Source of the DNA: an uncultured Planctomycetota bacterium
GTDB taxonomy: Bacteria; Planctomycetota; Planctomycetia; Isosphaerales; Isosphaeraceae
DNA: 64,000 nt
Assembly: GCA_963823665.1 (NCBI GenBank)
Contig: CAWGMQ010000010.1
Span: 1,728,001 to 1,792,000, forward strand
Reading direction: 5' to 3'
In this document: one piece after another, positions 20,790-61,859 of the stretch
Layout of the letters: each line of letters begins with the position of its first letter
Position numbering within the stretch: position 1 is the first letter of the stretch
Program-made: the position numbers and the translations under genes
The notes under the pieces: generated by a model
Databases searched by the model: none
The model's input: only the letters and a program-made list of their open reading frames with translations
What the model was told of the DNA's origin: nothing

Positions 20790-23700
20790 ATGACCGAATC
20801 GCCACCCGACAACGAGGCGATCTTCTACGCCGCCCGGCAGGTTCCCGACCCGGACCGTCGGCGCGAGTTCGTCCGGGAGGCGTGCGGCCCAGACGAGGCA
20901 CGAATCGCCCGCATCGAGGCGCTGCTGGCGGCCGCCGAAGGCCCCGACAGCCTGCTGGACCGTCCAGTCCCGGCAACTGCCGTGGCGGCCTTCGGCCAGC
21001 CTGCCACGGAGAGCCCCGGCACGGTGATCGGCCCGTACAAGCTCATCGAGCAGATCGGCGAGGGCGGCATGGGCAGCGTCTGGATGGCCCAGCAGACCAA
21101 GCCTGTCTACCGCCTCGTCGCCGTCAAGCTGATCAAGGCGGGAATGGACTCCCGGCAGGTCATCGCCCGCTTCGAAGCCGAGCGGCAGGCGCTGGCCCTC
21201 ATGGACCACCCCAACATCGCCCGTGTGCTCGAGGGCGGCACCACCGGCGCTGGCCGGCCATATTTCGTCATGGATCTCGTCAAGGGTGTCCCGATCACCC
21301 GCTATTGCGACGAGCACCACCTCACGCCGCGGCAGCGGCTCGAACTGTTCATCACGGTCTGCCAGGCTGTCCAGCACGCTCATCAGAAGGGCATCATCCA
21401 CCGCGACTTGAAACCTACCAACGTGCTGGTCGCCCTCTATGATGGCAAGCCCGTGCCTAAGATCATCGACTTCGGCGTCGCCAAGGCGGCCGGGCAACAG
21501 TTGACCGACAAGACGCTGGTCACCCACTTCGGGGCAATCGTCGGCACGCTGGAATACATGTCGCCCGAGCAGGCGGAGTTGAACCAGCTCGACATCGACA
21601 CGCGCAGCGACATCTACTCGCTGGGCGTGCTGCTGTACGAGCTTTTGGCCGGCAGCCCGCCGTTCAGTCGCAAGGAGCTGACTCAGTCCGGCATGCTGGA
21701 AATGCTCCGCGTGATCCGCGAGCAGGAGCCAACCAAACCCAGCACGAAACTGAGCACTTCGGACGGCTTGCCGACCTTGGCCGCCAACCGCGGGACAGAG
21801 CCGGCGAGGCTGACCAAGCTGCTGCGTGGCGAACTTGATTGGATCGTGATGAAAGCGCTCGAAAAGGACCGCAACCGCCGCTACGAGACCGCCAACGGAT
21901 TCGCGATGGACGTGGCGCGCTACCTGGCCGATGAGCCGGTGCGGGCCTGTCCGCCGTCGGCCGGGTACCGGCTCCGGAAGTACGCCCGGCGCAACCGGGG
22001 TGGGCTGGCGGTGGCCGCGCTCTCGCTGTTCTTCCTCGTGCTTCTCGGTAGCGGCGTCGGGTGGGTCGTGCGCGATCGGTCGGCGCGGGAGATGGAAGCG
22101 GCCCGGCAACAGGGGGAGCGGCAGGCGAAGGTGGCCGGGCAGGTCATTTCGATCTTTGGCGAGGTAAACCGGCTGGAGAACGAGCAGAAGTGGCCCGAGG
22201 CCCTGGAGGCGGCCCGGCGGGCCGAGGCGGCCGTGGCCGTCGGCGAGGCAGATCCGGCAACCGCCGAGCGGGTCCACCAGCAGTTGAGGGAACTTGAGTT
22301 CATCGACCGGCTGGAGCGAATCCGGATGGAGAGGGCAACGCACGTTGAAGGGGTGTTCGACATTGCCGAGGCGGATCGGGATTACGCCCGGGCCTTCCGC
22401 GAGTACGGCGTCGATGTCGACGAGCTGCCGGTCGAGACGTCGATCGACCGGCTCAAGGCCCGCCCGCCACTCGCCGTCGTCTTGGCGGTGGCACTGGACG
22501 ACTGGGCTCGCGCCCGGCGCCAGGTCCCGCAACAGGATGCCGGCGGCTGGAAGCGGCTCGCGGCCGTGGCACGCGGTATCGACCCGGAGCCCCTGCGGGA
22601 CCGGGTCCGGGCGGCCTGGGGCCAGCCCGTCGCCAACGTGCCCGACGACCTGCTCCGGCTGGCCGACTCGATCGACGTTCGGGCCCAACACACCGCGACG
22701 CTCGACTTGCTCACCCGCACCCTCCGGCAGGTTCAGCATACCGACTCCGCGCTTCGGATTCTGCGGGAGGCGCACTTTGTCCACCCGGGCGATTTCTGGC
22801 TCAATTTCGAGCTGGGCCATGCGCTCCAGCAACAAGGAGACTACGAGGGCGCGGTTCGGTTCTACACCGCGGCCGTAGCCAGCCAACCGAGTTCGGCTGG
22901 CGCCCACAATAACCTCGGCAACGCCCTGTCCGCCCAGAAGCAGCCGGACGAGGCCATCGCCTGCTACCGCAAGGCCATCGAGCTCGACCCGAAATTCGCC
23001 GGCGCTTACCGCAACCTTGGCCTCGCCCTGCGCGACCAGGGCAAGCTGGACGAGGCCATCGTCGCCTTCGAAGAAGTCACCCGGCGCCAGCCGGATTTCC
23101 CCGAGGCGCATTTCGGACTTGCTTCAGTCCTCGCTCAGGCGAAGCAATGGGATCGCTCGGCTGGTGTCTACGCAGCAGCACTGAAGCGGTTTGGCGCCGA
23201 TCAATGGCCTGGGCCATGGTTTGAAGCCATCCGCTCCGACGAAGTTTTCACGCGCTTGACGGCCCAGCAACCGGATGCTCGCCTCCCTTGGATCGTCCGG
23301 GCTCGCCTCCATGTCTTCGAGCGCGACTGGAAACGCGCCGCGGCGGACTATACCCGCGCGAGCGAATCGTGGGCAAGCATGGGCCCGGCCGAACTCGCGC
23401 CGGAGGGCGATGACCTGCTTAGCTATGGCTGCCTGTTGCTCTTCTTGGGCGACCGCCACGGCTACGAGCAGTTTTGCAAAAAGTGGGCGGATGCGGTGGG
23501 CGACTCCCCGGCTTGTCGGTACAGCTTGGCGCGCGTCCGGGCGATGAGCCCCCGGCCGGTTGTCCCCGCGCAGCAGATCGTCGAGCTGGCTGGGAAGATC
23601 CTCCAGGCTGGTAGGTATCCCTGGGATCTACACGTCCTGAGCCTCGCCCACTACCGCAATGGGGAATTCGAACTGGCGGCCGAGCGCGCCCTTGAGTCGA

Positions 23701-23963
23701 ACGGGGGGAACTGGCGCGGCAGCGCAAAAGCTCTCAATTGGGTCGTCCTGGCGATGGCCCATTCCCGCCTGGGTCATGCGGCAGACGCGCGCAAGTCCCT
23801 GCAGCAGGCCCTCAAACTGGCCGGCCGAGCGAGCCCCGAGCAACTCCCCGGAGTGGAATGGCAGGACATGGCAGCGCCCGACGTCGTCGAATTCGAGCTC
23901 CTTCGCCGCGAGGCCGAGGAGCTCATCAACCCCAGATCGAAGGAAAAACCGGATAAGAAATAA
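20790..23963 (+). CDS. Membrane Ser/Thr kinase with TPR C-terminus (STK1, 4 core TPRs)
   Basis: Intact 1057-aa ORF with kinase motifs, a TM helix and 34-aa TPRs. Confidence 0.93.
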   Translation: MTESPPDNEAIFYAARQVPDPDRRREFVREACGPDEARIARIEALLAAAEGPDSLLDRPVPATAVAAFGQPATESPGTVIGPYKLIEQIGEGGMGSVWMAQQTKPVYRLVAVKLIKAGMDSRQVIARFEAERQALALMDHPNIARVLEGGTTGAGRPYFVMDLVKGVPITRYCDEHHLTPRQRLELFITVCQAVQHAHQKGIIHRDLKPTNVLVALYDGKPVPKIIDFGVAKAAGQQLTDKTLVTHFGAIVGTLEYMSPEQAELNQLDIDTRSDIYSLGVLLYELLAGSPPFSRKELTQSGMLEMLRVIREQEPTKPSTKLSTSDGLPTLAANRGTEPARLTKLLRGELDWIVMKALEKDRNRRYETANGFAMDVARYLADEPVRACPPSAGYRLRKYARRNRGGLAVAALSLFFLVLLGSGVGWVVRDRSAREMEAARQQGERQAKVAGQVISIFGEVNRLENEQKWPEALEAARRAEAAVAVGEADPATAERVHQQLRELEFIDRLERIRMERATHVEGVFDIAEADRDYARAFREYGVDVDELPVETSIDRLKARPPLAVVLAVALDDWARARRQVPQQDAGGWKRLAAVARGIDPEPLRDRVRAAWGQPVANVPDDLLRLADSIDVRAQHTATLDLLTRTLRQVQHTDSALRILREAHFVHPGDFWLNFELGHALQQQGDYEGAVRFYTAAVASQPSSAGAHNNLGNALSAQKQPDEAIACYRKAIELDPKFAGAYRNLGLALRDQGKLDEAIVAFEEVTRRQPDFPEAHFGLASVLAQAKQWDRSAGVYAAALKRFGADQWPGPWFEAIRSDEVFTRLTAQQPDARLPWIVRARLHVFERDWKRAAADYTRASESWASMGPAELAPEGDDLLSYGCLLLFLGDRHGYEQFCKKWADAVGDSPACRYSLARVRAMSPRPVVPAQQIVELAGKILQAGRYPWDLHVLSLAHYRNGEFELAAERALESNGGNWRGSAKALNWVVLAMAHSRLGHAADARKSLQQALKLAGRASPEQLPGVEWQDMAAPDVVEFELLRREAEELINPRSKEKPDKK

Positions 23964-23990: not shown

Positions 23991-24019
23991 TTACGGGTTC
24001 GGCCCCGGTTTCTCGCATT
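23991..24019 (+). promoter_or_regulatory. Putative ECF promoter, type A copy 2
   Basis: TTACGGG-N16-CGCATT. Confidence 0.65.
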
Positions 24020-24059: not shown

Positions 24060-26997
24060 ATGACGGCATCACCACCCGACAACGAAGCAATCTTCCACGC
24101 CGCCCGCGACATCCCCGACCCGGCCCGCCGTCGGGCGTACGTCCGGGAGGCGTGCGGCCCAGACGAACCCCGGATCGCCCACATCGAGGCGCTGCTTGTG
24201 GCCGCCGACGGCCCCGACAGCCTGCTGGACCGTCCGGCGGCGGCCGCCGTCTTGGCGGCCATCGGCCAGCCTGCCACGGAGAGCCCCGGCACGGTGATCG
24301 GCCCGTACAAACTTATCGAGCAGATCGGCGAAGGCGGCATGGGCAGCGTCTGGATGGCCCAGCAGGCCAAGCCTGTCTACCGCCTCGTCGCGGTCAAGCT
24401 AATCAAGGCCGGCATGGACTCCCGGCAGGTCATCGCCCGCTTCGAGGCCGAGCGACAGGCGCTGGCCCTGATGGACCACCCGAACATCGCCCGCGTGCTC
24501 GACGGTGGCACCGCGGGCGGTGGCCGGCCGTACTTCGTCATGGATCTCGTCAAGGGTGTGCCCATCACCCGCTACTGCGACGAGCACCACCTCACGCCGC
24601 GGCAGCGGCTGGAGCTGTTCGTCCCCGTGTGCCAGGCAGTGCAGCACGCGCACCAGAAGGGCATCATCCACCGCGACCTGAAGCCCTCGAACGTGCTGGT
24701 CGCCCTCTATGACGGCAAGCCCGTGCCCAAGATCATCGACTTCGGCGTGGCCAAGGCTGCCGGGCAACAGTTGACCGACAAGACCCTGGTCACCGGCTTC
24801 GGGGCGATCGTGGGCACGCTGGAATACATGTCGCCCGAGCAGGCTGAGTTGAACCAGCTCGACATCGACACGCGCAGCGACATCTACTCGCTGGGCGTGC
24901 TGCTTTACGAATTGCTGGCCGGCAGCCCGCCGTTTTCTCGCAAGGAGCTGACGCACGCCGGCGTGCTGGAGATGCTCCGCGTGATCCGCGAGCAGGAGCC
25001 ATCAAAACCGAGCACGAAACTGAGCACGGCGGACGGCTTGCCGACGTTGGCCGTCAACCGCGGGACGGAACCGGCCAAGCTGACGAAGCTGGTGCGTGGC
25101 GAGCTCGATTGGATCGTCTTGAAGGCCCTGGAAAAGGACCGCAACCGCCGCTACGAGACCGCCAACGGCTTCGCGATGGACGTGCAGCGCTACCTGGCGG
25201 ATGAAGCTGTACAAGCGTGTCCGCCGGGCGGCGGCATACCGGCTGCGGAAGTTTGTGCGGCGGCACAAGGGGCCGGTGCTCGCCGGGTTGTTGATCTTGC
25301 TGGCCTTACTCGCCGGCGTCGTCGGCACGACCTATGGCCTGATTCGGGCGAAACAGCAACGCAAGGTCGTCGAGAATCAACGCAACGAGCTCGCCGAGCG
25401 CAACCAGGCGCTGCAAGCAGCCCGTGAACATGAACGCCTCCTGAGCGAACGTGCCCGCCAGGCCATCGAAACGGTCACGTCCGAAGCGTCCATCGACCTG
25501 CTCATGCGCGAGAAGGAGCTCCGCCCGGAGCAAAAAGACTTCCTGGACAAAATGATCCAGTATTACGCCGAGGTCAGCCAGGACGGGGGCACCACCGAAC
25601 AGGAACGAACCCGGCAGGCGCGAGCCTACTATCGGATGGGGCGCATGAACGACATTCTGGGCCGGTCCCGTGATAGTCAGAACGCTTATCGCCGGGCCGT
25701 GTCGCTTCTACAGCAACTCGCCGACGAGTTCCCCACCAGGACCGAGTACCGGCAGGAACTTGCCCTCGCCCACAGTGCGCTTGGAAACCTGCTCAACCAC
25801 GGCTTCGGGCGGCTGAAGGAGGCGGAGTCGGCCTACCGCGACGCCTTGGCCATCCAGAAGAAGCTCGCGGCCGAGGTCCCCGGCCGGCCCGAGTTCGGGC
25901 AGACCCTGGCCGGGATTTACAACAACCTGGGCAACGTGCTCGTCCTCGACACCGCGCGGTTGAAGGAAGCGGAGTCGGCCCACGCCGAGGCCCTGGCGAT
26001 TCGTCAGCAGCTTATCGTCGCTTTCCCCGGCCGGCCCATACTCCACCGCGCCCTGGCGATGAGCCACAACAATCTTGGCTGGTTATTCCAGATTACCAGG
26101 CGGCCGGAGAAAGCCGAGCCGGCCTTGCGCGATGCGATCGCCGCCCAGAAGCAGGCTGTCGCCAGCTTCCCCGACCGGCCCGAGTTTCGTCTGGAACTGG
26201 CGAGCTACCTCTTCAACCTCGGCAACCTGATCCGCGACAAGGGGCTGCTCAAGGAAGCGGAGGCGATCTATGGCGAGGCGCTGCCGATTGAGAAGCACCT
26301 CGTTGCCATGTTCCCAGGTCGGCCCCAGTTCCACGAGGAGCTGGCCGCGGGCCACAACAACGTGGGCCTTCTGCTCCGGGACAAGGGCCTGCTTGAGGAT
26401 GCAGAGGCTGCGCAGACCGAGGCCCTGGCTATTCAGAAGCGGCTCGCCTCCGAGTTCCCCGAGGTCACCAAATATCGCAACGCGGTCGCCGGCACACTCT
26501 TCAACCTGGCGAACCTGGCCGGCAAGCGTCGCGACTTCGCCGCCGCCCGCCGATTCCTCGACGAGGCGCTCCCCCACCACCAGGCTGCGCTAAAGGGCGA
26601 TTCGCAACGTTCGGACTACCGGCAGTTTTATCGAAACAGCCTGCTTGAGCTGACCCGGACTCATGCCGGCCAGGGGGACCGTCCCGGGGCGCTCGCCGTC
26701 GCAATGAAGGGGCATGATTTCGGTTGGGACCCAGCCGCCGATGCCTACGGGGCCGCTTGCATGTTGGCCCAGTGCATGCCAATTGTCGACAAAGACGACA
26801 AACTCGCTGCGGCAACACGACAAGCCGAAATCGCGTTCTACGCCGACCAGGCGATGGCCATGCTCCGCGATGCCCTCGCCAAGGGCTACAAGGATGCCGA
26901 CCACATGCAGACGGACAAAGACCTCGACCCGCTACGGCCACGCGAGGACTTCAAGACGGTAGTCGCGGAGCTGGAGGCGAAGGTGAAGAAGAACTGA
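24060..26997 (+). CDS. Membrane Ser/Thr kinase with ~48-aa TPR-like repeats (STK2), frameshift near 25230
   Basis: ORFs 24018..25427 and 25201..26997. FPxRPExRxxLA repeats and a DxDLDPLRxRxDF cap. Confidence 0.9.
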
Positions 26998-27002: not shown

Positions 27003-27071
27003 AAGGACTGGGCGTACGCCCGGAGCTGGCTCCGGATGGCGATCGACCGCATGTCCGGCCACCGGCCCTGA
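27003..27071 (+). pseudogene. Orphan copy of the ECF-A 3' tail
   Basis: Encodes KDWAYARSWLRMAIDRMSGHRP*, matching 20630-20701. Confidence 0.9.
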
Positions 27072-27093
27072 CCGACCGGGAAGAAAAAATACG

Positions 27094-27121
27094 TTACGGG
27101 TACGGCCCCGATTCTCGCATT
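27094..27121 (+). promoter_or_regulatory. Putative ECF promoter, type A copy 3
   Basis: TTACGGG-N15-CGCATT. One base short, possibly a homopolymer error. Confidence 0.6.
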
Positions 27122-27162: not shown

Positions 27163-31189
<4,027 letters not shown>

Positions 31190-31216: not shown

Positions 31217-31245
31217 TTACCGGTTCGGCCCCGGTTTCTCGCATC
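31217..31245 (+). promoter_or_regulatory. Putative ECF promoter, type A copy 4
   Basis: TTACCGG-N16-CGCATC. Confidence 0.6.
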
Positions 31246-31285: not shown

Positions 31286-34200
31286 ATGACGGCATCACCA
31301 CCCGACAACGAGGCGATTTTCCACGCCGCGCGCGCCATCCCCGACTCGGACCGCCGAAGGGCGTACGTGCGGGAGGCGTGCGGCGGAGACGAGACCCGGA
31401 TCGCCCACATCGAGGCGCTGCTTGTGGCCGTCGAAGGCCCCGACAGCCTGCTCGACCGTGCGGCGGCGGGTAATCCCATGGTGACCATCGACCGGCCTGC
31501 CACGGAGAGCCCCGGCACCGTGATCGGTCCGTACAAGCTCATTGAGCAAATCGGCGAGGGGGGCATGGGCAGCGTCTGGATGGCCCAGCAGACTGTGCCG
31601 GTCAAGCGATTGGTCGCCGTCAAGTTGATCAAGGCGGGCATGGACTCACGGCAGGTCATCGCCCGCTTCGAGGCCGAGCGGCAGGCGCTGGCGCTTATGG
31701 ACCACCCGAACATCGCCCGCGTGCTGGATGCCGGCACCACAGGCGGTGGCCGGCCGTACTTCGTGATGGATCTCGTCAAGGGGGTGTCGATCACGCGCTA
31801 CTGCGACGAGCACCACCTCACGCCGAGGCAGCGGCTGGAACTCTTTATCCCCGCCTGCCAGGCTGTTCAGCACGCGCATCAGAAGGGCATCATCCACCGT
31901 GACTTGAAACCTTCGAACGTGCTGGTCGCCCTCTATGATGGCAAGCCGGTGCCCAAGATCATCGACTTCGGCGTGGCCAAGGCTGCCGGGCAACAGTTGA
32001 CGGATAAGACGCTGGTCACCGGCTTCGGGGCGATCGTGGGCACGCTGGAATACATGTCGCCCGAGCAGGCGGAGGTCAACCAGCTCGACATCGACACACG
32101 CAGCGACATCTACTCGCTGGGCGTGTTGCTCTACGAGTTGCTGACGGGCAGCCCGCCGTTTTCACGCAATGAGCTGACCCAGGCCGGCATGCTGGAAATG
32201 CTCCGCTTGATCCGCGAGCAGGAGCCGTCAAAACCGAGCACGATGCTGAGCACGGCGGAGGGCTTGCCGACGTTGGCCGCCAATCGCGGGACGGAGCCGG
32301 CGAGGCTGACGAAGCTTGTGCGTGGCGAGCTTGATTGGATCGTGATGAAGGCCCTGGATAAAGACCGCATCCGCCGCTACGAGACCGCCAGCGGCTTCGC
32401 GATGGACGTGCGGCGCTACCTGGCCGACGAGCCAGTGCAGGCGTGTCCGCCTGGAGCGGGGTATCGGCTGCGCAAGTTCGCCAGGCGAAACAAGGGTGTG
32501 CTGGCGGTGGCAGCGCTGGTGCTGTTCTTCCTCGTGCTTTTCGGCAGCGGCGTCGGCTGGGTGGTGCGGGATCGGTCGGCGCGGGAGGGGGAGTTGCGTG
32601 CGGCGGTGACGGCGGCGCTCGACAAGGTGACGGACTTGCGAGAGCGCGGCGCTCGGGCGAGGCGCGTGCGGTGCTCGAGCAGGTGCGGCAGAGGCTCACG
32701 TCCTCGGGCGCGGAGGATTTGCCGCGTCAGGTGAAGCAAGCGGAGGCCGATGTGGCGCTCGTGGACAGGCTGGAGGCGGCGCGGCTGCAAGCGTCGGCGG
32801 TGGCCGGCAACATTCTCGACCATGCCTCGGCGGTAAGGGAGTACGCGGCGGCGTTTCGAGAAGCGGGTATCGGAGAGGAGACGGAGGCGGCGGAAGTCGT
32901 CGCGGATCGGATTCGATCAAGGGCGGTGCGGGAGCAGTTGGTGGCGGCCGTGGACGATTGGGCCGTGCGCGTGGGCAAGGAAGAACCGCCGCGTGCGACC
33001 TGGATGTTGGCGGTGGCGCGGGCGGTGGACCCCAATCCGTGGCGCAATCGTTTTCGGGATGCGGCGGTGTGGAACGACCGCACGGCGCTTGAGCGTCTGG
33101 CCCGCGAGGCGAAGGTGAGCGAACTGTCCCCGCAAATCATGAATGCATTGGGGATGCTATTGGTGAAGCTAAACGCGGATGCGATACCGTTGTTGACCGC
33201 GGCGCAGCGGCGTTATCCGAGCGATTTCTGGTTGAATTTTAGTTTGGGTGGGGCATTATATAATGCCCAGCGATGGGAGGAGGCGATCAGTTGCTACCGA
33301 GCGGCGTTGGTGTTGCGTCCGGCAGCCAGCGCCGCGTACCACAGCCTCGGCAACGCCCTGCGGATGAACGGCCGTGTGGATGAGGCCATCGCCGAGTACC
33401 AGAAGGCGATCGAACTCGACCCCAAGTATGGCCTTGCCCACGTCAACCTCGGCCACGCCCTGCGGGAGAAGCGCCGTGGGGATGACGGCATCGCCGAGTA
33501 CCGGAAGGCCATCGAACTCGACCCCAAGTTTGCCGCTGCCCACGTCAACCTCGGCCACGCCCTGCGGGATATGGGCCGTGGGGATGACGCCATCGCCGAG
33601 TACCGGAAGGGCATCGAACTCGATCCCAAGAATGGCCGTGCCTACGACAACCTCGGCCACGCCCTGCGGGATATGGGCCGTGTGGACGAGGCCATCGCCG
33701 AGTACCGGAAGTTCATCGAACTCGACCCCAAGTTTGCCGCTGCCCACTACTTCCTCGGCCTCGCCATGAAAGCCAAGGGAGACCTGGACGGGGCTGAGCG
33801 TGCCTTCCGTGAGGCAGTTCGTCTGGACGGCGAAAAGCACGGGGACGCCATCGATGCGCTGGCGGAACTGCTGCTGTCCCGCGGCAATTTGAAGGAAGCC
33901 ATCGCCACGTATCAAAAGATCATGATCCTCGATCCCGAGAGCGCGTCGGCGCACTACCACCTCGGAATCGCCCTGAAAGCCAAGGGAGACCTGGACGAGG
34001 CCATCGCCGCCTTCGAAGACGTCATCCGGCGCCAGCCGGATTTCACCGCGGCGCATTTCGGACTGGCTTCCGCCCTCGCCGAGGCCAAGCAATGGGATCG
34101 CTCGGCGAGTGTCTACGCAGCGGCACTGAAGCAGTTTGGCCCCGAGCGATCGCCCGGGCCGTGGTTTGAAGCCATCCGCTCGGACGAGGTTTTCACGCGC

Positions 34201-34567
34201 TTGACGGCCGAGCAACCGGATGACCGCCTCCCTCGGATCATGCGGGCTCGCCTCCATGTCTTGGAGCGCGACTGGAAATGCGCCGTGGCGGAGTATGCCC
34301 GCGTCTATGAATCGTTGGCAAGTATCGACCCGGCTAAGCTCCGCGTCGAGGGGGGCGATGGCCCATTCCCGACTGGGTCATGTGGAGGACGCGCGCAAGT
34401 CCCTGCAGCGCGCTCTCGAACTGGCCGGCCGAGCGAGCCCCGAGCAACCACCGGGACTGGCATGGCCCGACATGGCGCCGCCTGATTTCGTGGAATTCGA
34501 GCTCCTTCGCCACGAGGCCGAGGAACTCATCGACCCCAAATCGGAGGAGAAACGGGACAAGAAATAA
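31286..34567 (+). pseudogene. Membrane Ser/Thr kinase with 9 core TPRs (STK4); frameshift near 32650 and an out-of-frame 344-bp deletion at 34354
   Basis: ORFs 31286..32734, 32443..34485 and 34220..34567, compared with STK1 and STK3. Confidence 0.8.
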
Positions 34568-34569: not shown

Positions 34570-34730
34570 GGACTGGGCGTACGCCCGAAGCTGGCTCCGG
34601 CTGGCTATCGACCGTACATCCGGCCACCGGCCCTGACCGACCGGGAAGAAGAAAAACGTTACGGGTCCGCCCCCGGTTTCTCGCATTGTATTCTGGACGG
34701 GCCCCACGGCCCGCCGCGGAGGCTCCCATT
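34570..34730 (+). promoter_or_regulatory. ECF-A tail copy, type A promoter copy 5 and leader with a dead start codon
   Basis: ggactgggcgtacgcccg..., then TTACGGG-N16-CGCATT (34659-34687). The leader ends ggctcccATT where other copies read ggctcccATG. Confidence 0.75.
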
Positions 34731-34933: not shown

Positions 34934-35566
34934 ATGACCGCACCCGCGACCGACGAGGCCGACCTCTTGCGGCGGGCGAAGGCGGGCGATCAGCAGGCTG
35001 TGGCCACGCTGTTCGCCCGCTACCGCGACCGCCTGCGCAAGATGGTCCGGCTTCGCCTCGATCGCCGCCTGTACGGTCGCATCGACACGTCGGACGTCCT
35101 CCAGGACGCTTACCTGGAGGTGGCCCGACGCTTCCCCGAGTACGCGGCCTCCCCGACCGTGCCGTTCTACATCTGGCTGCGGTCCCTGACGGGGCAGCGG
35201 CTCGTCGATGTGCATCGCCGCAACCTGGGCGCGGAGATGCGCGATGCCGGGCGGGAGGTGTCGCTGTACCGCGGCCCACTGCCGGCGGCCTCGTCCGCGT
35301 CGCTGGCGCAGCACCTGCTGGCCGGCCTGACGTCGCCCACACAGGCCGCCATCCGGGCGGAGATGCAGCTTCGGCTGCACGAGGTGCTCAACAGCATGGA
35401 CCCGATCGACCGCGAGGTGGTCGTGCTGCGTCACTTCGAAGAACTGAGCAACATCGAGGCGGCCGAGGTCCTCGGGATCGAGACCTCGGCGGCCAGCAAG
35501 CGCTACATCCGGGCGATTCGACGGCTCAAGGCGATTCTCGACGCCGTGCCCGGGTTTTTCGGCTGA
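34934..35566 (+). CDS. ECF sigma factor, planctomycete TIGR02984/ECF59-like type (ECF-C)
   Basis: RLRKMVRLRLDRRLYGRIDTSDVLQD...DREVVVLRHFEELSN...ASKRYIRA. Confidence 0.92.
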   Translation: MTAPATDEADLLRRAKAGDQQAVATLFARYRDRLRKMVRLRLDRRLYGRIDTSDVLQDAYLEVARRFPEYAASPTVPFYIWLRSLTGQRLVDVHRRNLGAEMRDAGREVSLYRGPLPAASSASLAQHLLAGLTSPTQAAIRAEMQLRLHEVLNSMDPIDREVVVLRHFEELSNIEAAEVLGIETSAASKRYIRAIRRLKAILDAVPGFFG

Positions 35567-40204: not shown

Positions 40205-40212
40205 CTTCGTTG

Positions 40213-40369
40213 ATCACCGAACTGACAACGTTCAGAGGAAAGCGGCCGGCGGGGTCCTTACCGCCAAGCAAGCCCCCGCCGGCCCGGCACCGCTCCGGCG
40301 ATCGGTCTGCGCACCGGCGCGATGTCTTTTTCATTGTACCGCAGACCAGCTCTCGAAAGGAGAAGCATC
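40213..40369 (+). ncRNA. Candidate structured 5' leader, copy 1
   Basis: 11-bp stem 40244-54/40274-84, second stem 40304-11/40340-47, then an AAAGGAG RBS. Near-identical copy at 62008-62164. Confidence 0.45.
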
Positions 40370-51325: not shown

Positions 51326-54300
51326 ATGACCGCATCGCCACCCGACAACGAGGCGATCTTCCACGCCGCCCGCGACATCCCCGACCCGGACCGCCGGCGG
51401 AAGTACGTCCGGGAGGCGTGCGGCGAGAGACGAGGCCCGGATCGCCCACATCGAGGCGCTGCTGGCGGCCGCCGACAGCCCCGACAGTCTGCTGGACCGT
51501 CCGGTGGCGGCCGCTGCCTCGGCGACCATCGACCAGCCTACCACGGAGAGCCTCGGCACAATCGTCGGCCCGTACAAGCTCCTCCAGCAGATCGGCGAGG
51601 GGGGAATGGGCGCCGTCTACATGGCCGATCAGCTCGAGCCGGTTCGCCGCCGCGTGGCGCTGAAGATCATCAAGCCGGGGATGGACAGCCGCCAGGTCAT
51701 CGCCCGCTTCGAGGCCGAGCGGCAGGCCCTGGCCATGATGGACCACCAGAACATCGCCCGCGTCCTCGACGTCGGCACGACCGCCAGCGGCCGGCCCTAC
51801 TTCGTGATGGAGCTGGTCCATGGCGTGCCCATCACCCAGTTTTGCGACGACGGCAAGCTGAACCCGCGGCAGCGGCTGGAACTGTTCGTGCCGGTGTGCC
51901 AGGCGATCCAGCACGCGCATCAGAAGGGGATCATCCACCGCGACGTCAAGCCGTCCAACGTCCTGGTGACGATGTACGACGATCTTCCGGTGCCCAAGGT
52001 GATCGACTTCGGCGTGGCCAAGGCGGTCGAGCAGCGGCTGACGGAAAAGACGATGTTCACGCAGTTCGGCGCCTTTGTCGGCACCTTTGAGTACATGAGC
52101 CCCGAGCAGGCCGAGATGAATGCCTTCGGCGTCGACACGCGCAGCGACATCTACTCGCTGGGCGTCCTGCTCTATGAACTGCTTACAGGGACGACGCCCC
52201 TGGAGCAGAAACGGCTGCGCGAAGCAGGCCTGGCCGAGATGGTGCGGCTGATCAAGGAAGCGGAAGCGCCGCGGCCGAGCGTGCGGCTCTTCAGCTCGAA
52301 CAACCTGCCGAAGATCGCGGCGGCGCGGAACACGGATCCGGGCCGGCTATCGGGAATTGTCCGCGGCGAGCTCGACTGGATCGTGATGAAGTGCCTGGAG
52401 AAGGACCGCAAGCGGCGGTACGAAACCGCAAGCGGCCTGGCGCGGGACATCCAGAGATACCTCGCCGACGAGCCGGTGGAGGCGTGCCCGCCGGGCGCGG
52501 GCTACCGGCTGCGCAAGGCCGCACGCAAGCACCGCACGCCGCTGCTCGTGGCGAGCGCATTCCTGGTACTGCTGGTCTCAGGCGCGGTCGCCAGCGCCTG
52601 GCAAGCCGTTCGCGCCACCGTGGCCGAGAGAGAGGCCGAGAGCCGCAAGCGCGAGGCCGACGACGCCCGGGCGCAGGCCGAAGAGCGGCGCGACAAGCTG
52701 GCGGCCGTGAACGACACCCTGCGACGGGCCAGTTACGTCGCCGACGTGAACCTGGCCCACGTCGCCTGGGACGAGAACAATCTGAGCCGCGCCCACGAGT
52801 TGCTGGAGAAACACCGGCCCCGGCCCGGCGAGACCGATCTGCGCGGGTTCGAATGGCATTACCTTCGCCGTCTTTTTCAGCGCGATCTGCTCACCGTGAA
52901 GGCGCATCCCGGTGGGGTTACGGCCGTCGCCTTCACCCCCGACGGCAAGCGGCTGGTCACTTCCGGTGCGAGCCGCCCACGACAGAAATACTCGGACCCG
53001 AGGCTCGGCGATTTCAAGCTCTGGGATGCGGCTACGGGCCAGCAACTTCGCTTCCCGCTCGGCGGCCGCGCCCTTGAAGTGGAAAGAGTGGCGCTCAGCC
53101 CCGACGGTACCCGTCTCGCCGCGACTTGTTTGAATCAGACGGTCCTGGTATGGGAACTGGCCACCGGCGGCCTCGTCTCGCTGCAAGGGCCCGCGGGAGC
53201 GGTCGCCCGGAATGTGAATTTCAGTCCCGACGGCAAGCGACTGGTCTGCTCGTTTAACCCCGCTGACGACGATCCGACGAAGGATTCGCCGCGTTCGATC
53301 TGGATCTGGGACCTGGTAGAGCGCCGGGCCGTCGTGACCATCGATCGGCTCCCGTGGGGTGGATTCATGGCACCGTCCTTCAGCCCGGACGGCAAACTCC
53401 TGGCCGCCCCCCACGGGAGGGGTCTCGTCAAGGTGTGGGATGCGGCTACAGGCCACGAGGTCTTCTCTTGCAAATACGCCGATAGGTCAATCGTCTGTGA
53501 CGCAGCCTTCAGCCCGGACGGCAAACGTCTGGCCATCTGCGGTTATTATAACGGGATCCGCACCTGGGACGTGGCCAGCCGCGAGATGCTCTCCGCCTGG
53601 ACGTCCGAGTTCCAGGTCCGCGAATGCCTGGCCTTCAGCCGCGACGGCAAACGCCTGGCGACGGGAGGTATCCGCGGGATCGTCGAGGTGTGGGACACCA
53701 TGACGGGTCTCAAGGTCCAGACCTTCAAAGGGCACTTAGGACCGGTCGACGCCATCGCCTTCGCTCCGGACGGCATGCGCCTGGCCACCGGGAGCGCCGA
53801 CGGCACCTTGCGCCTCTGGGACGTGACCGAGCCTCCGGAGGCCGTCTCCATCCCCAAAGATGCAGCCGCGGCCGGAGGATTCCCCGACTTGAGCCCCGAC
53901 GGCCAGACGCTCCTGACCGATCCCGTATCGGGCGAGCGAAGGCCTCTTCGGCTCTGGGACACCGCCACGGGCAAGCCGCGCTGCGAGGCGATCGAGCTCC
54001 CGCAGCCCGCAGTCAGCTGGGCATGGACCGCCGACGGGAATCATCTGTACCTCGCAGACTCCGGCAAGGCCATCCGCGTCGTGGACGTCGCGACCGGCAA
54101 GGTGATCCGCACGTTCCCGGTCGACGCCGAAATCAATCCACTTAGGTACGACATCGCGCTTAGTCCTGATGAGAGATGGTGCGCGAACAGCGGGCCAGCC
54201 GGCACGATCACGGTGCGGGATGCCCAGAACGGCGCCCCATTCCGCACGATGGGGAAGCTCGAAGGCTCGGCGGGGATCTTGGCGTTCGGCCCGGACGGCT

Positions 54301-54758
54301 CGCGGTTGCTGGGAGCCGATGAGTACGGGGCGCTCAAGATCTGGGAAGTCGCCACGGGGCGCGAGATCGCGGCGACACGTTTGAGCGGCGTCTTGATCCA
54401 GGTCGCCCGGTTCAGCGCGGACGGAAAGCGCGTGGCCGTCGCGGGCCTCGTCGGTCAGTTGCTGACCGGTGAGGTGCGGATCCTGGACGCCGAAACCGCC
54501 CGCGAAGTCCAATCACTCAGGGGGCACTCCGCCAACGTGAAGGACGCGGTTTTCAGCCCCGACGGCGGGCGCCTGGCTACCGCGAGCGTGGACCAGACGA
54601 TCCGGATCTGGGACCTCGCCACCGGCCAGGAGATCCTCAAGTTGAGCGGCGACCCGAAGGTCTACACTGTCCGGTTCGTCGCGGGCGGCCGCCGATTGAT
54701 CGGCGCATCGGCGGATCGGACCATCCGCGTCTGGGACGCCACGCCGCTGCCGGAATAG
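51326..54758 (+). CDS. Membrane Ser/Thr kinase with WD40 propellers (STK6), frameshift near 51425
   Basis: [12 protein letters not shown] leader, kinase motifs, a TM helix, [10 protein letters not shown] and many [11 protein letters not shown] blades. Confidence 0.92.
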
Positions 54759-54807
54759 CGTCCTGTCCCGGTCGATCCCTGCCCCCCACTGCGTTATCAT
54801 GGCCGGC

Positions 54808-55365
54808 ATGAGTGAAGTCACACAGCTTTTGGATCAGATCCAGCAAGGCGATCCGCAAGCCGCTGCCGACCTGCTGCCCTTGGTCTATTCCGAATTGCGT
54901 CGCCTCGCCGCGGCGCGGTTGGCTCATGAAAAGCCCGGACAGACACTGGATGCGACGGCCTTGGTGCACGAAGCGTACCTGCGCCTGGTGGGGCCGGCCG
55001 ACGAGGAACGCTGGCGGAGCCGCGGCCACTTTTTCGCCGCCGCGGCCGAAGCAATGCGCCGAATTCTCGTCGAGCTTGCCCGGCGAAAGAGTCGAAAGAA
55101 ACGCGGGGGCGAACGTGTCCGCACGAACCTGGATCAGGTCGAGCCGGCTGCGGCGCCGCCCGGCGAGGACTTGCTGGCCCTCGACGAAGCCTTGACCCGG
55201 CTTGCCGTTGCCGATCCGATCGCCGCGGAGCTCGTGAAACTGCGCTATTTTGCCGGCATGACGATTCCTCAAGCCGCCGAATCTCTGGGCATAGGGAAGC
55301 GGTCGGCCGACCGGCTCTGGCTTTATGCCCGTGCCTGGCTGCGCAACGCGCTTTCCGAGAGCTAG
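54808..55365 (+). CDS. ECF sigma factor, TIGR02999/ECF43-like (ECF-B)
   Basis: MSEVTQLL...LLPLVYSELRRLA...QTLDATALVHEAYLRL...WLYARAWL. The start was chosen by alignment with ECF-A. Confidence 0.92.
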   Translation: MSEVTQLLDQIQQGDPQAAADLLPLVYSELRRLAAARLAHEKPGQTLDATALVHEAYLRLVGPADEERWRSRGHFFAAAAEAMRRILVELARRKSRKKRGGERVRTNLDQVEPAAAPPGEDLLALDEALTRLAVADPIAAELVKLRYFAGMTIPQAAESLGIGKRSADRLWLYARAWLRNALSES

Positions 55366-55386: not shown

Positions 55387-55415
55387 TGGCGCGATTTCTG
55401 CGCCGTTGGCGCATG
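55387..55415 (+). promoter_or_regulatory. Putative ECF promoter, type B copy 1
   Basis: TGGCGCG-N16-CGCATG. Confidence 0.65.
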
Positions 55416-55461: not shown

Positions 55462-58400
55462 ATGGGCGAACGATCGATTTTCATCGCGGCGCTGGAAAAG
55501 GACGATGCCGCCGAGCGCGCCGCCTATCTCGACCAGGCGTGCGCCGGTGATGAGCTCTTCGCGCACGGATCGAACGGTTGCTCAAGGCACACGAGCCCGC
55601 CGACAGTTTCCTCGAGCGAGGTCCCACAGTCCTGGATGCGACCGACAATCTCGATCCGATCGCGGAACCCCTCGGCACGGTCATTGGCCCGTACAAGCTT
55701 ATTGAGCCGATCGGCGAGGGGGGCATGGGCAGCGTCTGGATGGCACAGCAGACCGAGCCGATCAAACGCTTGGTCGCCGTCAAATTGATCAGGGCCGGCA
55801 TGGACTCCCGCCAGGTCATCGCCCGCTTCGAGGCCGAGCGGCAGGCGCTGGCCCTGATGGACCACCCCAACATCGCCCGCGTCCTGGACGCCGGCACCAC
55901 AAGCGCTGGCCGGCCGTACTTCGTCATGGATCTCGTCAAGGGAGTGCCCATCACGCGCTACTGCGACGAGCACCACCTCACGCCGCGGCAGCGGCTGGAA
56001 CTCTTCATCCCCGTCTGCCAGGCCGTCCAGCACGCTCATCAGAAGGGCATCATCCACCGTGACTTGAAGCCCTCCAACGTGCTGGTCGCGCAATACGACG
56101 GCAAGCCGGTGCCGAAGATCATCGACTTCGGCGTGGCCAAGGCTGCCGGGCAACAGTTGACCGAGAAGACGCTCGTCACCGGCTTCGGCGCGATCGTGGG
56201 CACGCTGGAATACATGTCGCCCGAGCAGGCGGAGTTGAACCAGCTCGACATCGACACGCGCAGCGACATCTACTCGCTGGGCGTGCTGCTCTACGAGTTG
56301 CTTACCGGCAGCCCGCCGTTTTCCCGCAAGGAGTTGACGCAGGCCGGCATGCTGGAGATGCTCCGCGTGATCCGCGAGCAGGAGCCATCGAAACCGAGCA
56401 CGAAGCTGAGCACGGCCGAAGGTTTGCCCACATTGGCCGCCAACCGCGGGACAGAGCCGGCCAAGCTGACAAAGCTGGTGCGTGGCGAACTGGATTGGAT
56501 CGTGATGAAGGCGCTGGAGAAAGACCGCAACCGCCGCTACGAGACGGCCAACGGCTTCGCCATCGACGTGCAGCGTTTCCTCTCGGGCGAGCCCGTGCTG
56601 GCGGTGCCGGCGACCACGCTGTACCGGCTGCGGAAGTTTGTAAAGCGGCACAGGGGGCCGGTGGCGGCGGTGGGGCTGGTCCTGCTCACGCTGGTCGGCG
56701 GCATAGCCGGGACGACGTCGGGTCTGCTGCGGGCCGCGGCGAAGAATCGAGAAGCCGTGGCCCAACGCGATGCCAAGGATAGGGCGCTGATAAGCGAGCA
56801 ACAGGCCCGCGCTGACGAAACGAAGGCCCGCCAGCAAGCGTTCGCCGCCTTGCGGAGCATGACCACCGACGTGGTCGAGAGGAAGTTCGCCCAGGGGACT
56901 GCGCTCACGGCGGACGATCGGGCGTTCCTCCGCGGTGTCATCGCACAGTTCGATGCCTTTGCGGCGATCAAGGGAAACGACGCCGGCAGCCGGTTTGTGC
57001 GGGCCGACGGACGATCGCGGGTCGGCAACATTCGTCGCAGACTAGGTGAGCTCAAGGAGGCGGAGCAGGACTTAGGCCAGGCTATGAGCATGTACAAGGA
57101 ACTGGCGGCCGACTTCCCTGGTCGACCCGACTTCCGCAAGGAACTGGCCGCAACTCACCGCCTCCGGGGCCTTCTGTTGGTTCAGTTGGGCCGGCTCAGA
57201 GAGGCGGAGCCGGACATCAACCAGGCCGTGACGCTCAACGAGCAACTGGCGGCGGACTTCGCCTCACAAGCCGACGACAGCCAGGAGCTGGCCAGAAGCT
57301 TTAACAACCGAGGCCTTCTGCGGCAGGAGACAGGCCGGCCGAAAGAGGCCGAGCAGGACTTCGAACAGGTCCTGCGCATCTACACGCAACTGGGGGCCGA
57401 CTTCCTTGGTCGACCCGACTTCCGCAAGGATCTGGCCCGTGGTCAGCATAACCTGGCTTTCCTGCTGAGCATCACGGGCCGGCTGCCTGAGGCGTTAACG
57501 GCCTTCGACCAGGCCCTGGGCGTCCAGAAGCAACTGGCGGCGGAGTTTCCGTCCCAACCCGAGTTCCGCAATGAGGCAGCCGTAACTCACATCGACCGGG
57601 GCACGCTGCTGGTGAACATGGGCCGGCCCAAGGAGGCGGAAGAGGACTGCGACCAGGCCGTGCGTATCTACACGCAACTGGCGGCTGACTTCCCCTCGGC
57701 ACCCGAATTCCGCACGAGGCTGGCCACAGGTCACCACAACCGGGGAAATGTGCGGCTCGCCACGGGCCGGCTGCCTCTGGCAGAGAAGGACTTCGATCAG
57801 GCCCTGAGTATCAACAAGCAACTCGCGGCCGACTTCCCCTCCCAAACTGCGTTCCGCCACGACCTGGCCTCCAGCCGCAGTGCCCGCGGCAGTCTGCTGT
57901 TGGAAATGGGCCGGCTCAAGGAGGCAGAGCAGGAATATGACCAAACCTTGAGCGTCCGGAAGCAACTGGTAGCCGAGTCCCCCAGCCAGCCGGACCTGCG
58001 GAAGGAACTGGGGGGCACCTTCGACAACCTGGCGCTTGTCTATCTGCGCCAAGGATACTTTGCTGCGGCCAAACCCCTGCTCCTGGAGGGCCTGCCGCAC
58101 CATCTGGCCGCCCTGAAGGTCAACCCCCGGCATCCTCAATATCGCCTGACCTACCGCAAGCATCTGAGCCTGCTGCCAGAGGTTCACGCGGAGCTGCTGG
58201 AGCAGGAAGATGCCGTGCACGCCGCTCTTGCCGTGGGGGACCTGGGTTATGACCCGCCCGCGGATGCCTACGACGCGGCGTGTCTTCTGAGCCGGTGCGT
58301 CCGGAGGGTATCGAAGCACGACAAGTTGGACGACAAAGAGCGCCAGCAGGCGGCGCAGTTCTACGGCGACGAGGCGATGAAGCTCCTCCGCGCAGCGGTG

Positions 58401-58541
58401 AGCAAGGGCTTCAAAAACGTGGCGCACATGAAAAAAGACACCGATCTCGATCCCTTGCGCAAGCGGGACGATTTCCAGAAGCTCGTCGCGGAGCTGGAGG
58501 CCGCGGCCGTCCCAGAAAAAGATAAAAGCATAGAAGAATAA
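55462..58541 (+). CDS. Membrane Ser/Thr kinase with diverged 48-aa repeats (STK7), frameshift near 55560
   Basis: MGERSIFIAALE leader plus ORF 55578..58541. Confidence 0.92.
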
Positions 58542-58554: not shown

Positions 58555-58583
58555 TTGCGCGATTTCCGCGCCGATGGCGCATC
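58555..58583 (+). promoter_or_regulatory. Putative ECF promoter, type B copy 2
   Basis: TTGCGCG-N16-CGCATC. Confidence 0.65.
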
Positions 58584-58628: not shown

Positions 58629-61600
58629 ATGAGCGAACGAACGATTTTCATCGCGGCGCTGGAAAACGACGATGCCAACGAGCGGGCCGCCTATCTCGAC
58701 CAGGCGTGCGCCGGTGATGAGCTCTTGCGCGAACGGATCGAACGGTTGCTCAAGGCACACGAGCCGGCCGACAACTTCCTCGAGCGTGCGTCCCGCAGTC
58801 CTCGATGCTACCGACAATTTTGAGCCAATCGCCGAATCTGCCGGCACGGTGATCGGCCCGTACAAGCTCATTGAGCCGATCGGCGAGGGCGGCATGGGCA
58901 GCGTCTGGATGGCACAGCAGACCGAGCCGGTCAAGCGCCTGGTCGCCGTCAAGTTGATCAAGGCCGGCATGGACTCCCGGCAGGTCATCGCCCGCTTCGA
59001 GGCCGAGCGGCAGGCGCTGGCCCTGATGGACCACCCGAACATCGCCCACGTGCTCGATGCCGGCACCACCAGCGGTGGCCGGCCGTACTTCGTCATGGAT
59101 CTGGTCAAGGGGATGCCCATCACCCGCTACTGCGACGAGCACCAGCTCACGCCGCGGCAGCGGCTGGAACTGTTCATTCCGGTCTGCCAGGCGGTCCAGC
59201 ACGCGCATCAGAAGGGCATCATCCACCGCGACTTCAAGCCCTCCAACGTGCTGGTCGCCCTCTACGACGGCAAGCCGGTGCCCAAGGTCATCGACTTCGG
59301 CGTGGCCAAGGCGACCGGGCAACAGCTGACCGACAAGACGCTGGTCACCGGCTTCGGGGCGATCGTCGGCACGCTGGAATACATGTCGCCCGAGCAGGCG
59401 GAGGTCAACCAGCTCGACATCGACACCCGCAGCGACATCTACTCGCTGGGCGTGCTGCTCTACGAGTTGCTGACCGGCAGCCCGCCGTTCTGCCGCAAGG
59501 AGCTGGACAAGGCCGGCATGCTGGAGATGCTGCGCGTGATCCGCGAGCAGGAGCCATCGAAACCGAGCACGAAGCTGAGCACGGCCGACGGCTTGCCGAC
59601 GCTGGCCGCCAACCGCGGGACGGAGCCGGCAAAGCTGACCAAGCTGGTCCGGGGCGAACTCGACTGGATCGTGATGAAGGCGCTGGAGAAGGACCGCGGC
59701 CGGCGTTACGAGACGGCCAACGGCTTCGCGATGGACGTGCAGCGCTACCTGGCGGGCGAGCCGGTGCTGGCGGCGCCGGCGACCGGCTGTACCGGCTGCG
59801 GAAATTTGTAAAGCGGCATCGGGGGCCGGTCGCGGCGGCGGGGCTGGTCCTGCTGACGTTGGTCGGCGGCATCGCCGGGACGACGTGGGGCCTGCTGGCG
59901 GCCGCGTGCCGAGGCGAAGAATCGAGAAGCCGTGGCCGAGCGCGATGCCAAGGATCGGGCCCTGAAAAGCGGAACAACAGGCCCGCGCAGACGAAACGAA
60001 GGCCCGGCAGCAAGCGTTCGCCGCCTTGCGGAGCATGACCACCGACGTGGTCGAGACGGAAGTTCGCCCAGGGGACGGTGCTGACGGAGGACGACCGGGC
60101 GTTCCTGCGCGGCGTCATCGCGCAGTTCGATGCCTTTGCGGCGATCAAGGGAAACGACGCCGACAGCCGGGCGATGCGGGCGGAGGGACGATTCCGAGTC
60201 GGCACCATGCGTCACAGGCTGGGTGAACTCCAGGAGGCGGAGCAGGACTACGACCAGGCCCTCATCATCCAGAAGCAACTGGCGGCCGACTTCCCCTCCC
60301 GCCCCGAGTTCCGCGAGGGCCTGGCCAATGGCCACAACAACCGGGGCATTCTGCTGCGGAAGACGGGCCGGCTCAAGGAGGCGGAGCAGGACTACGACCA
60401 GGCCCTGAGCATCAAGAAGCAACTGGCGGCCGACTTCCCCGCCCGACCCGAGTTCCGCCAGGAGCTGGCCAAAAGCCACAACAACCGAGGCACTCTGCTG
60501 CAGAAAACGGGCCGGCCCAAGGAAGCGGAGCAGGACTACGACCAGGCCCTGAGCATCCAGCAAGCAACTGGCGGCCGACTTCCCCTCCCGACCCGAGTTC
60601 CGCCAGGAGCTGGCCAGAAGCCACAACAACCGGGGCAATCTGCTGCGCGACACGGGCCGGCCCAAGGAGGCGGAGCAGGACTACGACCAGGCCCTCTTCA
60701 TCCAGAAGCAACTGGCGGCCGACTTCCCTGCCCGACCCGAGTTCCGCCAGGAGCTGGCCAGAAGCCACTTCAACCGGGGCGGTCTTCTGCGTGAGACGGG
60801 CCGGCTCCAGGAGGCGGAGAAGGACTACGACCAGGCCCTGAGCGTCCAGAAGCAACTGGCGGCCGACTTCCCCGCCCGACCCGAGTTTCGCCAGGAACTG
60901 GCCAGAAGCCACAACAGCCGAGGCAATCTGCTGCGTGACACGGGCCGGCTGACAGAGGCGGAGCAGGACTACGACCAGGCCCTGAACATCAAGAAGCAAC
61001 TGGCGGCCGACTTCCCCGCCCGACCCGAGTTCCGCCAGGACCTGGCCAGAAGCCACAACAGCCGAGGCAATCTGCTGCGTGACACGGGCCGGCCCAAGGA
61101 GGCGGAGCAGGACTACGGCCAGGCCGTATGCCTCTACAAGCAGCTAGTGGCCGACTTCCCCTCCCGGCCCGAGTTCCGCCAGGACCTGGCCAGAAGCCAC
61201 AACAGCCGGGGCAATCTACTGGCTACCACGGGCCGGCCCAAGGAGGCGGAGACAGGACTTCGACCAGGCACTGAGCCTCGACCAGCAATTGGCGGCCGAC
61301 TTCCCCAACCAGCCGGACCTGCGGAACGACCTGGCGGGCACCTGCGTGAACCTGGCGCATCTCCATCAACTCGAGGGGCAACTGGGCTGCCGCCAAACGG
61401 CTGCTCCTGGAAGGCCGGCCGCACCACCTGGCCGCCCTGAAGGCCAACCCCCGCCACCCGGCCTATCGCCAGTTCTATCGCACCCATCTCGGCCTGCTGA
61501 CCGAGGTCCACGCGGGGCTGCTGGAGCAGGAGGACGCTGTCCGCACCGCCGAAACGTGTCGGGACCTGGGCTGGAACGCGCCGGCGGATGCCTACGACGC

Positions 61601-61859
61601 GGCGTGCATGCTGAGCCAGTGCGTCCCCATCGTGGCCAAGCACGACAAGCTGGACGACCAGCAGCGGAAGCCAGCGGCGCAGTTCTATGGCGACGCGGCG
61701 ACGAAGATGCTCCGCGATGCAGTGAGCAAGGGCTACAAGGACTTGGCGCACATGAAGAAAGACACCGATCTCGATCCCTTGCGCCAGCGGGACGATTACC
61801 GGAAGCTCGTCGCCGAACTGCAGACCGCGGCCGTCCCAGAAAAAGTTAATAGCAGATAG
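58629..61859 (+). CDS. Membrane Ser/Thr kinase with near-identical 48-aa repeats (STK8), several frameshifts
   Basis: Paralog of STK7, pieced together from ORFs at 58629, 58672, 60078, 61147 and 61608. Confidence 0.85.
60230..61310 (+). repeat. 144-bp tandem repeat array inside STK8
   Basis: Anchor ggact(a/t)cg at 60245, 60389, 60533, 60678, 60822, 60966, 61110 and 61255. Confidence 0.92.

Follow-up and report, generated by a model that had tools for sequence, protein, structure and literature searches.

A short leader domain as a probable sigma-factor docking module in mosaic Ser/Thr kinases of an Isosphaeraceae genome

The 64 kb stretch of DNA analysed here (G000:C10:1728001-1792000, contig CAWGMQ010000010.1; hereafter the window, whose own numbering is used for positions) comes from an uncultured Planctomycetota bacterium of the Isosphaeraceae, with a genome of 16.5 Mb and 41 matches to the TIGR02999 sigma family above cut-off. 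Between positions 20123 and 61859 the window holds eight kinase genes (STK1 to STK8), two TIGR02999 sigma factors (sigA and sigB) and one TIGR02984 sigma factor. Seven of the kinases begin with a leader of ~60 residues, of type A or B, and it is this leader and its relation to the sigma factors that concern us. The kinases are mosaics with crossovers at the kinase ends, and leader and promoter each covary with the sigma factor.

Both sigma factors match PF07638 (Sigma70_ECF; 215 bits for sigA, 213 bits for sigB) and TIGR02999 (219 and 206 bits; cut-off 126), and the nearest relatives of sigA are records titled Planctomycetota. The motif in sigma region 2.2 is QATA in sigA, as in 90 of 133 relatives, and DATA in sigB. 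A Foldseek search with the sigA model returned weak ECF matches only (best E 0.03). The Ser/Thr kinases STK1 and STK7 adjoin sigA and sigB, respectively, at position +1.

Comparison of the seven leader-bearing kinases at the DNA level, which is independent of reading frame, resolves them into combinations of leader (A or B), kinase (K1 or K2) and sensor (34-residue tetratricopeptide repeats (TPRs), 48-residue repeats or WD40). Each leader starts at the first base of its gene as listed in Table 1. Leader DNA is 81–91% identical within type A, 91% identical between STK7 and STK8 and 48–53% identical between types. The C-terminal part of the kinase domain is 86–91% identical among STK1–4, STK7 and STK8, whichever leader they carry, and 69–73% identical to that of STK6; beyond the kinase, identity is 86% for STK3/STK4, 89% for STK7/STK8 and 28–59% for other pairs. 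Crossovers lie at both kinase ends, with identity switching at about nucleotide 230 (kinase start) and nucleotide 1190 (kinase end) of STK1. The best repeat period is 34 codons in STK1, STK3 and STK4 and 48 codons in STK2, STK7 and STK8, although the 48-residue repeats of STK2 and STK8 share only 64–66% DNA identity. A 19-residue hydropathy peak of 1.9–2.9 follows the kinase in all 8 segments scanned, from which we infer a single membrane helix with the TPR or WD40 part beyond it, outside the cell. A preliminary description of this DNA had read leader A with K1 as carrying 34-residue TPRs in STK1, STK3 and STK4 and 48-residue repeats in STK2, leader A with a different kinase and WD40 in STK6, and leader B with the same K1 and 48-residue repeats in STK7 and STK8; each of these combinations is present in the sequence.

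Table 1. Positions of the sigma factors, kinases, leaders and promoter-like motifs in the window
Feature	Position	Strand
sigA, TIGR02999 / Sigma70_ECF sigma factor; QATA motif, T50 candidate phosphosite, K140	20123..20701	+
Promoter-like motif A (-35 half ... CGCAT), inferred sigA target	20721..20749	+
Leader A of STK1; three predicted helices (8-16, 21-32, 36-50), E9; predicted sigma-region-4 docking domain	20790..20978	+
STK1, intact: leader A, kinase K1, hydrophobic helix near 22002, 34-residue TPRs	20790..23963	+
Promoter-like motif A preceding STK2	23991..24019	+
STK2: leader A, K1, hydrophobic helix, 48-residue repeats; +1 base near 25229	24060..26997	+
sigA 3' remnant and promoter-like motif A	27003..27121	+
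STK3: leader A, K1, hydrophobic helix, 34-residue TPRs; +1 base at 27566	27163..31189	+
Promoter-like motif A preceding STK4	31217..31245	+
STK4: leader A, K1, hydrophobic helix, 34-residue TPRs; frame changes 3' of kinase	31286..34567	+
sigA 3' remnant and motif A, leader start lost; upstream of TIGR02984 sigma	34571..34687	+
sigC, TIGR02984 sigma, different family from sigA/sigB	34934..35566	+
STK5: unrelated N-terminal leader, divergent kinase, WD40 and TPR; frameshifted	35585..39997	+
Two more motif A copies before non-kinase sequence (choice-of-anchor Q surface protein downstream)	40085..40560	+
STK6: leader A, kinase K2, hydrophobic helix, WD40; extra base (+1) near 51426; diverged -35 half in the upstream region	51326..54758	+
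sigB, TIGR02999 sigma; DATA motif; A140	54799..55365	+
Promoter-like motif B preceding STK7	55388..55414	+
STK7: leader B (R9), K1, hydrophobic helix, 48-residue repeats; -1 base near 55559	55462..58541	+
Promoter-like motif B preceding STK8	58556..58582	+
STK8: leader B (R9), K1, hydrophobic helix, 48-residue repeats; several frameshifts	58629..61859	+
sigB 3' remnant and motif B, upstream of TIGR03118-like gene	61867..61991	+

Self-comparison of the window shows that sigma 3' remnants, spacer and leader have been copied as a single block. The tracking of leader with promoter inside the window is therefore plain linkage, and the window alone cannot support docking. The preliminary description had also held that leader type follows promoter type and the nearest upstream TIGR02999 sigma. 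Leader does track sigma type and promoter type, but proximity fails as a rule, because sigC lies between sigA and STK6 and because a sixth leader A (G000:C10:1822822) follows a second copy of sigB yet has its own sigA 3' remnant and an A-type spacer. The region upstream of STK6, with its diverged -35 half, is 50–62% identical to those of the other A types. The second sigB copy, 25 kb past the window (L033), is followed by leader B, K1 and an STK3/4-type sensor, a combination missing from the window. In the same locus (L033:9955-11001; G000:C10:1822654 onward) a sigA 3' remnant with a premature stop is followed by motif A and a leader A that runs straight into the C-terminal portion of an STK6-like kinase, whose N-lobe has been lost.

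From 200 loci and the window we assembled 133 adjacent sigma-leader pairs and 62 trios with a full kinase domain (1891 comparisons); a phylum-wide search at E 1e-60 was too strict, reaching 3 of 150 other genomes. With closeness thresholds that were set after viewing the data (sigma at least 72%, leader at least 55%, kinase at least 80%), 20 comparisons are between close sigmas, and of these 17 also pair close leaders and 9 close kinases; of 52 comparisons between close kinases, 9 pair close sigmas. Two kinases served by one sigma have leaders 63–89% identical (8 loci); for kinases that each have their own, different sigma the figure is 37–52% (3 loci). Trees were built for 19 of the 62 loci, chosen after viewing the identities. 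The sigma and leader trees both contain the sigA clade (support 100/99), which the kinase tree rejects (approximately unbiased test, p-AU 1.3e-4); the K1 and K2 kinase sets, in turn, are rejected by both the sigma tree and the leader tree. Separate module phylogenies had been put forward in the preliminary description as a check on the shuffling; they are incongruent for the kinase, so the shuffling withstands that check.

This pattern of inheritance is, by itself, compatible with a leader that merely hitchhikes. The sigma end, promoter and leader would then form a short block that is rarely split, and the role of the leader would be internal to the kinase, in dimerisation or autoinhibition. 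In favour of this, sigma 3' remnants show the block to have been copied whole, and the crossovers are located at points in the conserved kinase where homology resumes. A promoter placed between sigma and leader has in any case to match the sigma, and the deep Mantel correlation favours the kinase.

The promoter provides a positive control for covariation on the same pairs. In 94 of 133 spacers, against 12.8 expected, a CGCAY motif is found 22–75 bases 5' of the kinase start. Among 77 non-redundant pairs, sigma residues E169, K170 and S166 covary with bases 19–22 upstream of this motif, and T96 and G70 with bases at the motif itself, with coupling z of 11–19 (ten shuffles, 7.8 or less). CGCAY is likely to be the adjacent sigma's own promoter, because the coupled residues sit in the recognition helix and region 2 of the predicted sigma model. 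Motif A, at up to 3 mismatches, has seven occurrences, all within ~55 kb, and motifs A and B precede non-kinase genes as well. As an observation in its own right, this code, which relates the -35 bases to residues 166, 169 and 170 and the -10 region to residues 96 and 70, could be used to predict the regulons of this sigma family.

In the corresponding analysis of 133 sigma-leader pairs, sigma K140 and leader E9 are coupled with z 15.1 (top values in six shuffles, 6.2–7.4), and with 199 pairs z is 16.0 (15 shuffles, 5.5–8.3). The top 11 couplings in the larger set are all between the leader and sigma residues 137–181, in region 4; four kinase windows used as a control gave top values of 6.5–7.8, scattered and at shuffle level. 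The leading pair is a charge swap, sigma K140 with leader E9 versus A140 with K9 or R9. Where sigma 140 is basic, leader 9 is acidic in 43 of 48 cases and basic in none; where it is non-basic, leader 9 is basic in 61 of 85 and acidic in 2. The window itself has both forms, K140 of sigA with E9 of leader A and A140 of sigB with R9 of leader B. As residue 137 of sigma is usually acidic, it seems that one partner or the other provides a lysine. On the sigma tree the states at 140 and 9 change 23 and 22 times, and jointly only 27. Among disjoint close pairs, 53 differ at sigma 140; leader 9 shifts as expected in 47 of these and in the opposite direction in 0, their paths not being strictly independent.

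The swap replicates in a hold-out set of 66 new pairs from 99 further loci (26/29 versus 6/37, p 1.8e-9), as does charge avoidance at 181/41 and 170/17; the 180/48 pair, which is not a charge pair, gave nothing in this hold-out charge test. Couplings chosen and trained on 165 pairs from other genomes also match partners in the host, where they were applied to 20 non-redundant pairs. The cognate leader has a mean rank of 2.8–4.6 of 20 (10.5 expected) and is placed first in 7–11 of the 20, with z of 4.9–6.6 compared with a maximum of 3.5 from 300 random position sets. Models with 3, 5 or 8 couplings assign both sigA and sigB correctly. Prediction of the leader-sigma complex, which the preliminary description had suggested, gave 0.54 for sigA and its leader (best control 0.01). 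Agreement between runs was at least 69% of contacts, and the partner pLDDT (predicted local distance difference test) was at least 75. Among solved pairs 116 of 157 attain the mark used for this score, and among mismatched pairs 2 of 215. The score is thus above the controls, but in a weak range, and no interface was returned.

Several results weigh against a docking role. Over all distances the Mantel correlation is higher for sigma-kinase (0.47) than for sigma-leader (0.18), the leader being short and its distances saturated, so that correlation across the whole family does not favour the leader. Strongly supported branches yield only 4 independent pairs for the charge swap (p 0.125) and no direction for 170/17. 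When the 66 hold-out pairs are analysed alone, K140-E9 falls outside the top 8 couplings, and 26 of 92 further full-length sigmas have no adjacent leader match. S166 and K170 covary with DNA also, which may make their couplings to the leader indirect. In models with 10 or 12 couplings, sigB scores higher with the STK4 leader than with leader B. Complex scores of 0.60 or less are found for 18 of the 157 solved complexes and for both passing mismatches, which makes 0.54 a weak pass. Lastly, STK1 is the only intact open reading frame, six of the seven kinases with leader A or B being frameshifted in the assembly.

The residue-level evidence nevertheless favours docking over linkage alone. Hitchhiking predicts a diffuse correlation, whereas what is seen is a set of site-specific, complementary charge swaps that recur some 20 times on the tree, hold in pairs set aside, are confined to one surface of the sigma factor and absent for kinase windows, match partners out of sample, and shift in the expected sense in most of the disjoint close pairs. 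We consider it unlikely that the leader is a mere passenger.

Our preferred reading, to which we give a probability of roughly three in four, is that the leader, a three-helix domain, binds region 4 of its own sigma and that the interchangeable kinase would phosphorylate only that partner. A role for the leader as a sigma-specificity or docking module had been suggested in the preliminary description, and it gains support from the region-4 covariation, the replicated charge swap, partner matching and, weakly, the complex prediction. The outer TPR or WD40 part would sense a signal across the membrane. Helix 1 of the leader (N8, E9, Q17) would dock on the start of the sigma helix 138–149 and on the recognition helix, and helix 3 with the tail (R41, A44, A48, A49, P52, D57) on the last sigma helix (173–181). 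A flexible linker would let the tethered kinase reach the threonine of sigma region 2.2 (T50), by analogy with EcfP and EcfK. The activated sigma would then transcribe from its own promoter type, located before each cognate kinase and before genes for surface proteins, so that one sigma could gather the inputs of several sensors, with positive feedback. The leader would in effect be an address label with which each kinase finds and switches on only its own sigma among ~40 look-alikes, and its code would restrict cross-talk among these paralogues. Placing specificity in the leader would free the catalytic and sensor parts for recombination at the conserved kinase ends.

Since the coupled surface overlaps with the helix that reads the -35 element, the leader may, like class I anti-sigma domains, also keep the sigma factor from DNA. 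Taken further, inhibition could be the main role of the leader: as an anti-sigma built into the kinase, it would retain sigma at the membrane with the -35 surface masked until signalling, and substrate choice would be secondary. Docking and such a role can coexist, the difference being the sign of the effect; we regard the inhibitory role as improbable in this strong form. The helix that bears the coupled sigma residues does covary with the -35 bases, and class I anti-sigma domains touch sigma 4 through a charged pair, RseA D11 with RpoE R149/R178 (PMC7406223), whose RpoE residues, judged from the published text rather than from an alignment, would fall on the same surface. The several leader copies in some kinases (ten stretches in P0001) could titrate sigma. 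ECF43 sigmas, however, are described as inactive until phosphorylated, the kinase being required for activity (PMC8999054), so that an inhibitor would be unneeded, and searches found no profile or fold likeness between the leader and the zinc anti-sigma domains.

The frameshifts themselves are likely assembly errors. Within the first 1200 bases of STK2, STK3, STK6, STK7 and STK8, seven indels were mapped, all of them single-base, and non-kinase neighbour genes are broken too. The extra base at 27566 is absent from one public contig (a single contig of depth 5 that may be a paralogue); public contig coverage of the region is thin. The broken kinases and neighbours, the sigma remnants and the kinase-deleted copy might suggest that the mosaic arose by misassembly or is an array of decaying pseudogenes. 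This is very improbable, since the same combinations occur in open frames of other genomes, where a sigA-type sigma and leader A are found with K1 (L041, L048), K2 (L045) and a third kinase (L054), and since one contig lacks the extra base.

The leader is predicted to form three helices (pLDDT 76), and profile searches assign it no Pfam or NCBIfam family. Its profile finds 62,421 representatives at E <= 0.001; the ESM Atlas places leader A in unnamed clusters only. Of six non-planctomycete plasmid loci, two have a strong leader match, three a weak one and one none. Some kinases (P0001, P0009, P0012) have 2 to 10 tandem leader copies before the kinase domain, P0001 being the one with ten matched stretches. 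The profile also matches residues 9–56 of PDB 9eed_A (E 1.3e-4), a chain of 364 residues that we take to be PknS(1-364) of PMC13147305. On that identification the leader would be homologous to the N-terminus of Xanthomonas PknS that is invisible in the crystal. Anti-sigma ancestry, considered because of a resemblance, is unsupported by hhalign, Pfam or two fold searches. Alignment to 29 zf-HC2 domains gave a probability of 0.7% (E 0.08), a comparison that was direct for zf-HC2 only; zf-HC2 and RseA_N are absent among the best 25 of 39 Pfam families at E <= 1. Foldseek gave no match at E 0.001, and the best VIA matches (Z 5.8) are unrelated helical proteins.

Pathways of this type are already known, together with the expansion of kinases with TPR and WD40 arrays (PMC7826278, PMC8999054, PMC8103513, PMC11032199). 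EcfK-PknS of Xanthomonas citri (PMC13147305) and EcfP-PknT of Vibrio parahaemolyticus (PMC8999054, PMC8103513) are pairs of an ECF43 sigma and a Hanks kinase, and for both EcfK and EcfP direct phosphorylation has been shown to activate the sigma (PMC13147305, PMC8999054). Shared with these pairs are the Sigma70_ECF domain with a Thr-containing motif of the QTTA type replacing the acidic sigma-2.2 motif, the kinase at +1, the membrane helix and the outer TPRs. The 81 N-terminal residues of PknS, the region that matches the leader profile if 9eed_A is indeed PknS, are predicted to form three to four helices on a flexible linker, and the available text assigns them no role (PMC13147305). ECF43 is given, in the supplement to PMC7826278, as confined to Proteobacteria with a predicted promoter of GTC (-35) and CAG (-10); here the -10-like motif is CGCAY and the relatives are Planctomycetota, and on sequence grounds sigA and sigB are ECF43-like and are not assigned to ECF43 proper. 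Like the class I anti-sigma domains RseA, ChrR and RsiW (PMC7406223), the leader is a small helical module, for which covariation indicates a charged contact between helix 1 and sigma region 4 that would set coarse specificity. Unlike them, it has no detectable sequence or fold likeness, zinc motif or fourth helix coupled to sigma 2, and it is fused to an activating kinase. The expanded Planctomycetota Ser/Thr kinases (PMC11032199) have the same order of kinase, membrane helix and TPR or WD40, and are described as undergoing lineage-specific duplication and recombination, with similar architectures arising repeatedly. That account, so far as its available text goes, deals with the kinase and C-terminal domains only, in contrast to the N-terminal leader and sigma pairing seen here and the specificity code proposed. 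EcfK-PknS and EcfP-PknT differ in that the present genome is of planctomycete type, with its many TIGR02999 sigmas, and has several kinases per sigma, each behind a sigma-matched promoter, with the modules reshuffled. No docking role for the leader was found in the literature searched, which did not cover Jogler 2012, Wiegand 2020, the PknS supplement or Iyer 2020, reportedly the source study of EcfP-PknT.

Bacterial Hanks kinases are usually described as promiscuous, and a genome with ~40 look-alike sigma/kinase pairs raises the question of how cross-talk is avoided. We lean, with less assurance than for docking itself, towards the wider view that the leader is a widespread sigma-recognition domain which would confer partner specificity of the two-component kind through a small charge code, leaving catalytic and sensor domains plug-and-play, and which would grip the -35-reading face of sigma 4 as an anti-sigma does, yet deliver the sigma for activation. 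The residue pairs named (sigma/leader 140/9, 181/41, 176/57 and 180/48) make specificity testable by a few swaps. This reading would offer a function for the N-terminus of PknS and would allow orphan kinases to be assigned to sigmas; it would also supply candidate promoters for each sigma and parts from which orthogonal sensor-kinase-sigma circuits could be built.

The motif A upstream of sigC suggests a sigA-to-sigC cascade. STK5, which lies 3' of sigC (window 34934-39997; also L040:7121-11144), has a different, unnamed N-terminal leader that may be a second docking module, for the TIGR02984 sigma family; it does not match the leader profile (0.3%), and its ESM Atlas clusters, at 0.97, are all unnamed. 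Some 7 kb beyond the window is a copy of STK5 type, 94–96% identical, that lacks part of its kinase domain. In three loci (L339, L340, L030) the TIGR02999 domain stands at the C-terminal end of open frames of 655–700 codons, which are possible fusions; no leader or kinase was found in frame with it in L339 and L340, and no sigma-leader fusion among 92 sigmas checked.

Several other genes in the window lie behind these motifs or beside the kinases. A large frameshifted surface protein with choice-of-anchor Q domains (40656-49201) follows motif A, and a paralogue of it begins (63015-64000) behind a B-like motif at 62916. The TIGR03118-like gene behind the sigB remnant and motif B is in pieces (62117-62793), and its upstream DNA partly recurs, at 88%, behind the motif A at 40208 (40188-40402). 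Directly 5' of STK6 is a frameshifted gene with a weak MauG-like match, of the di-haem peroxidase type (49217-51224). A ninth kinase, on the reverse strand (7322-10360), has 42-residue TPRs and a frameshifted leader of a third type, with a small helix-turn-helix gene upstream and no adjacent sigma, and a BlaR1/M56-peptidase-like membrane protein of 1016 residues is encoded at 12167-15217.

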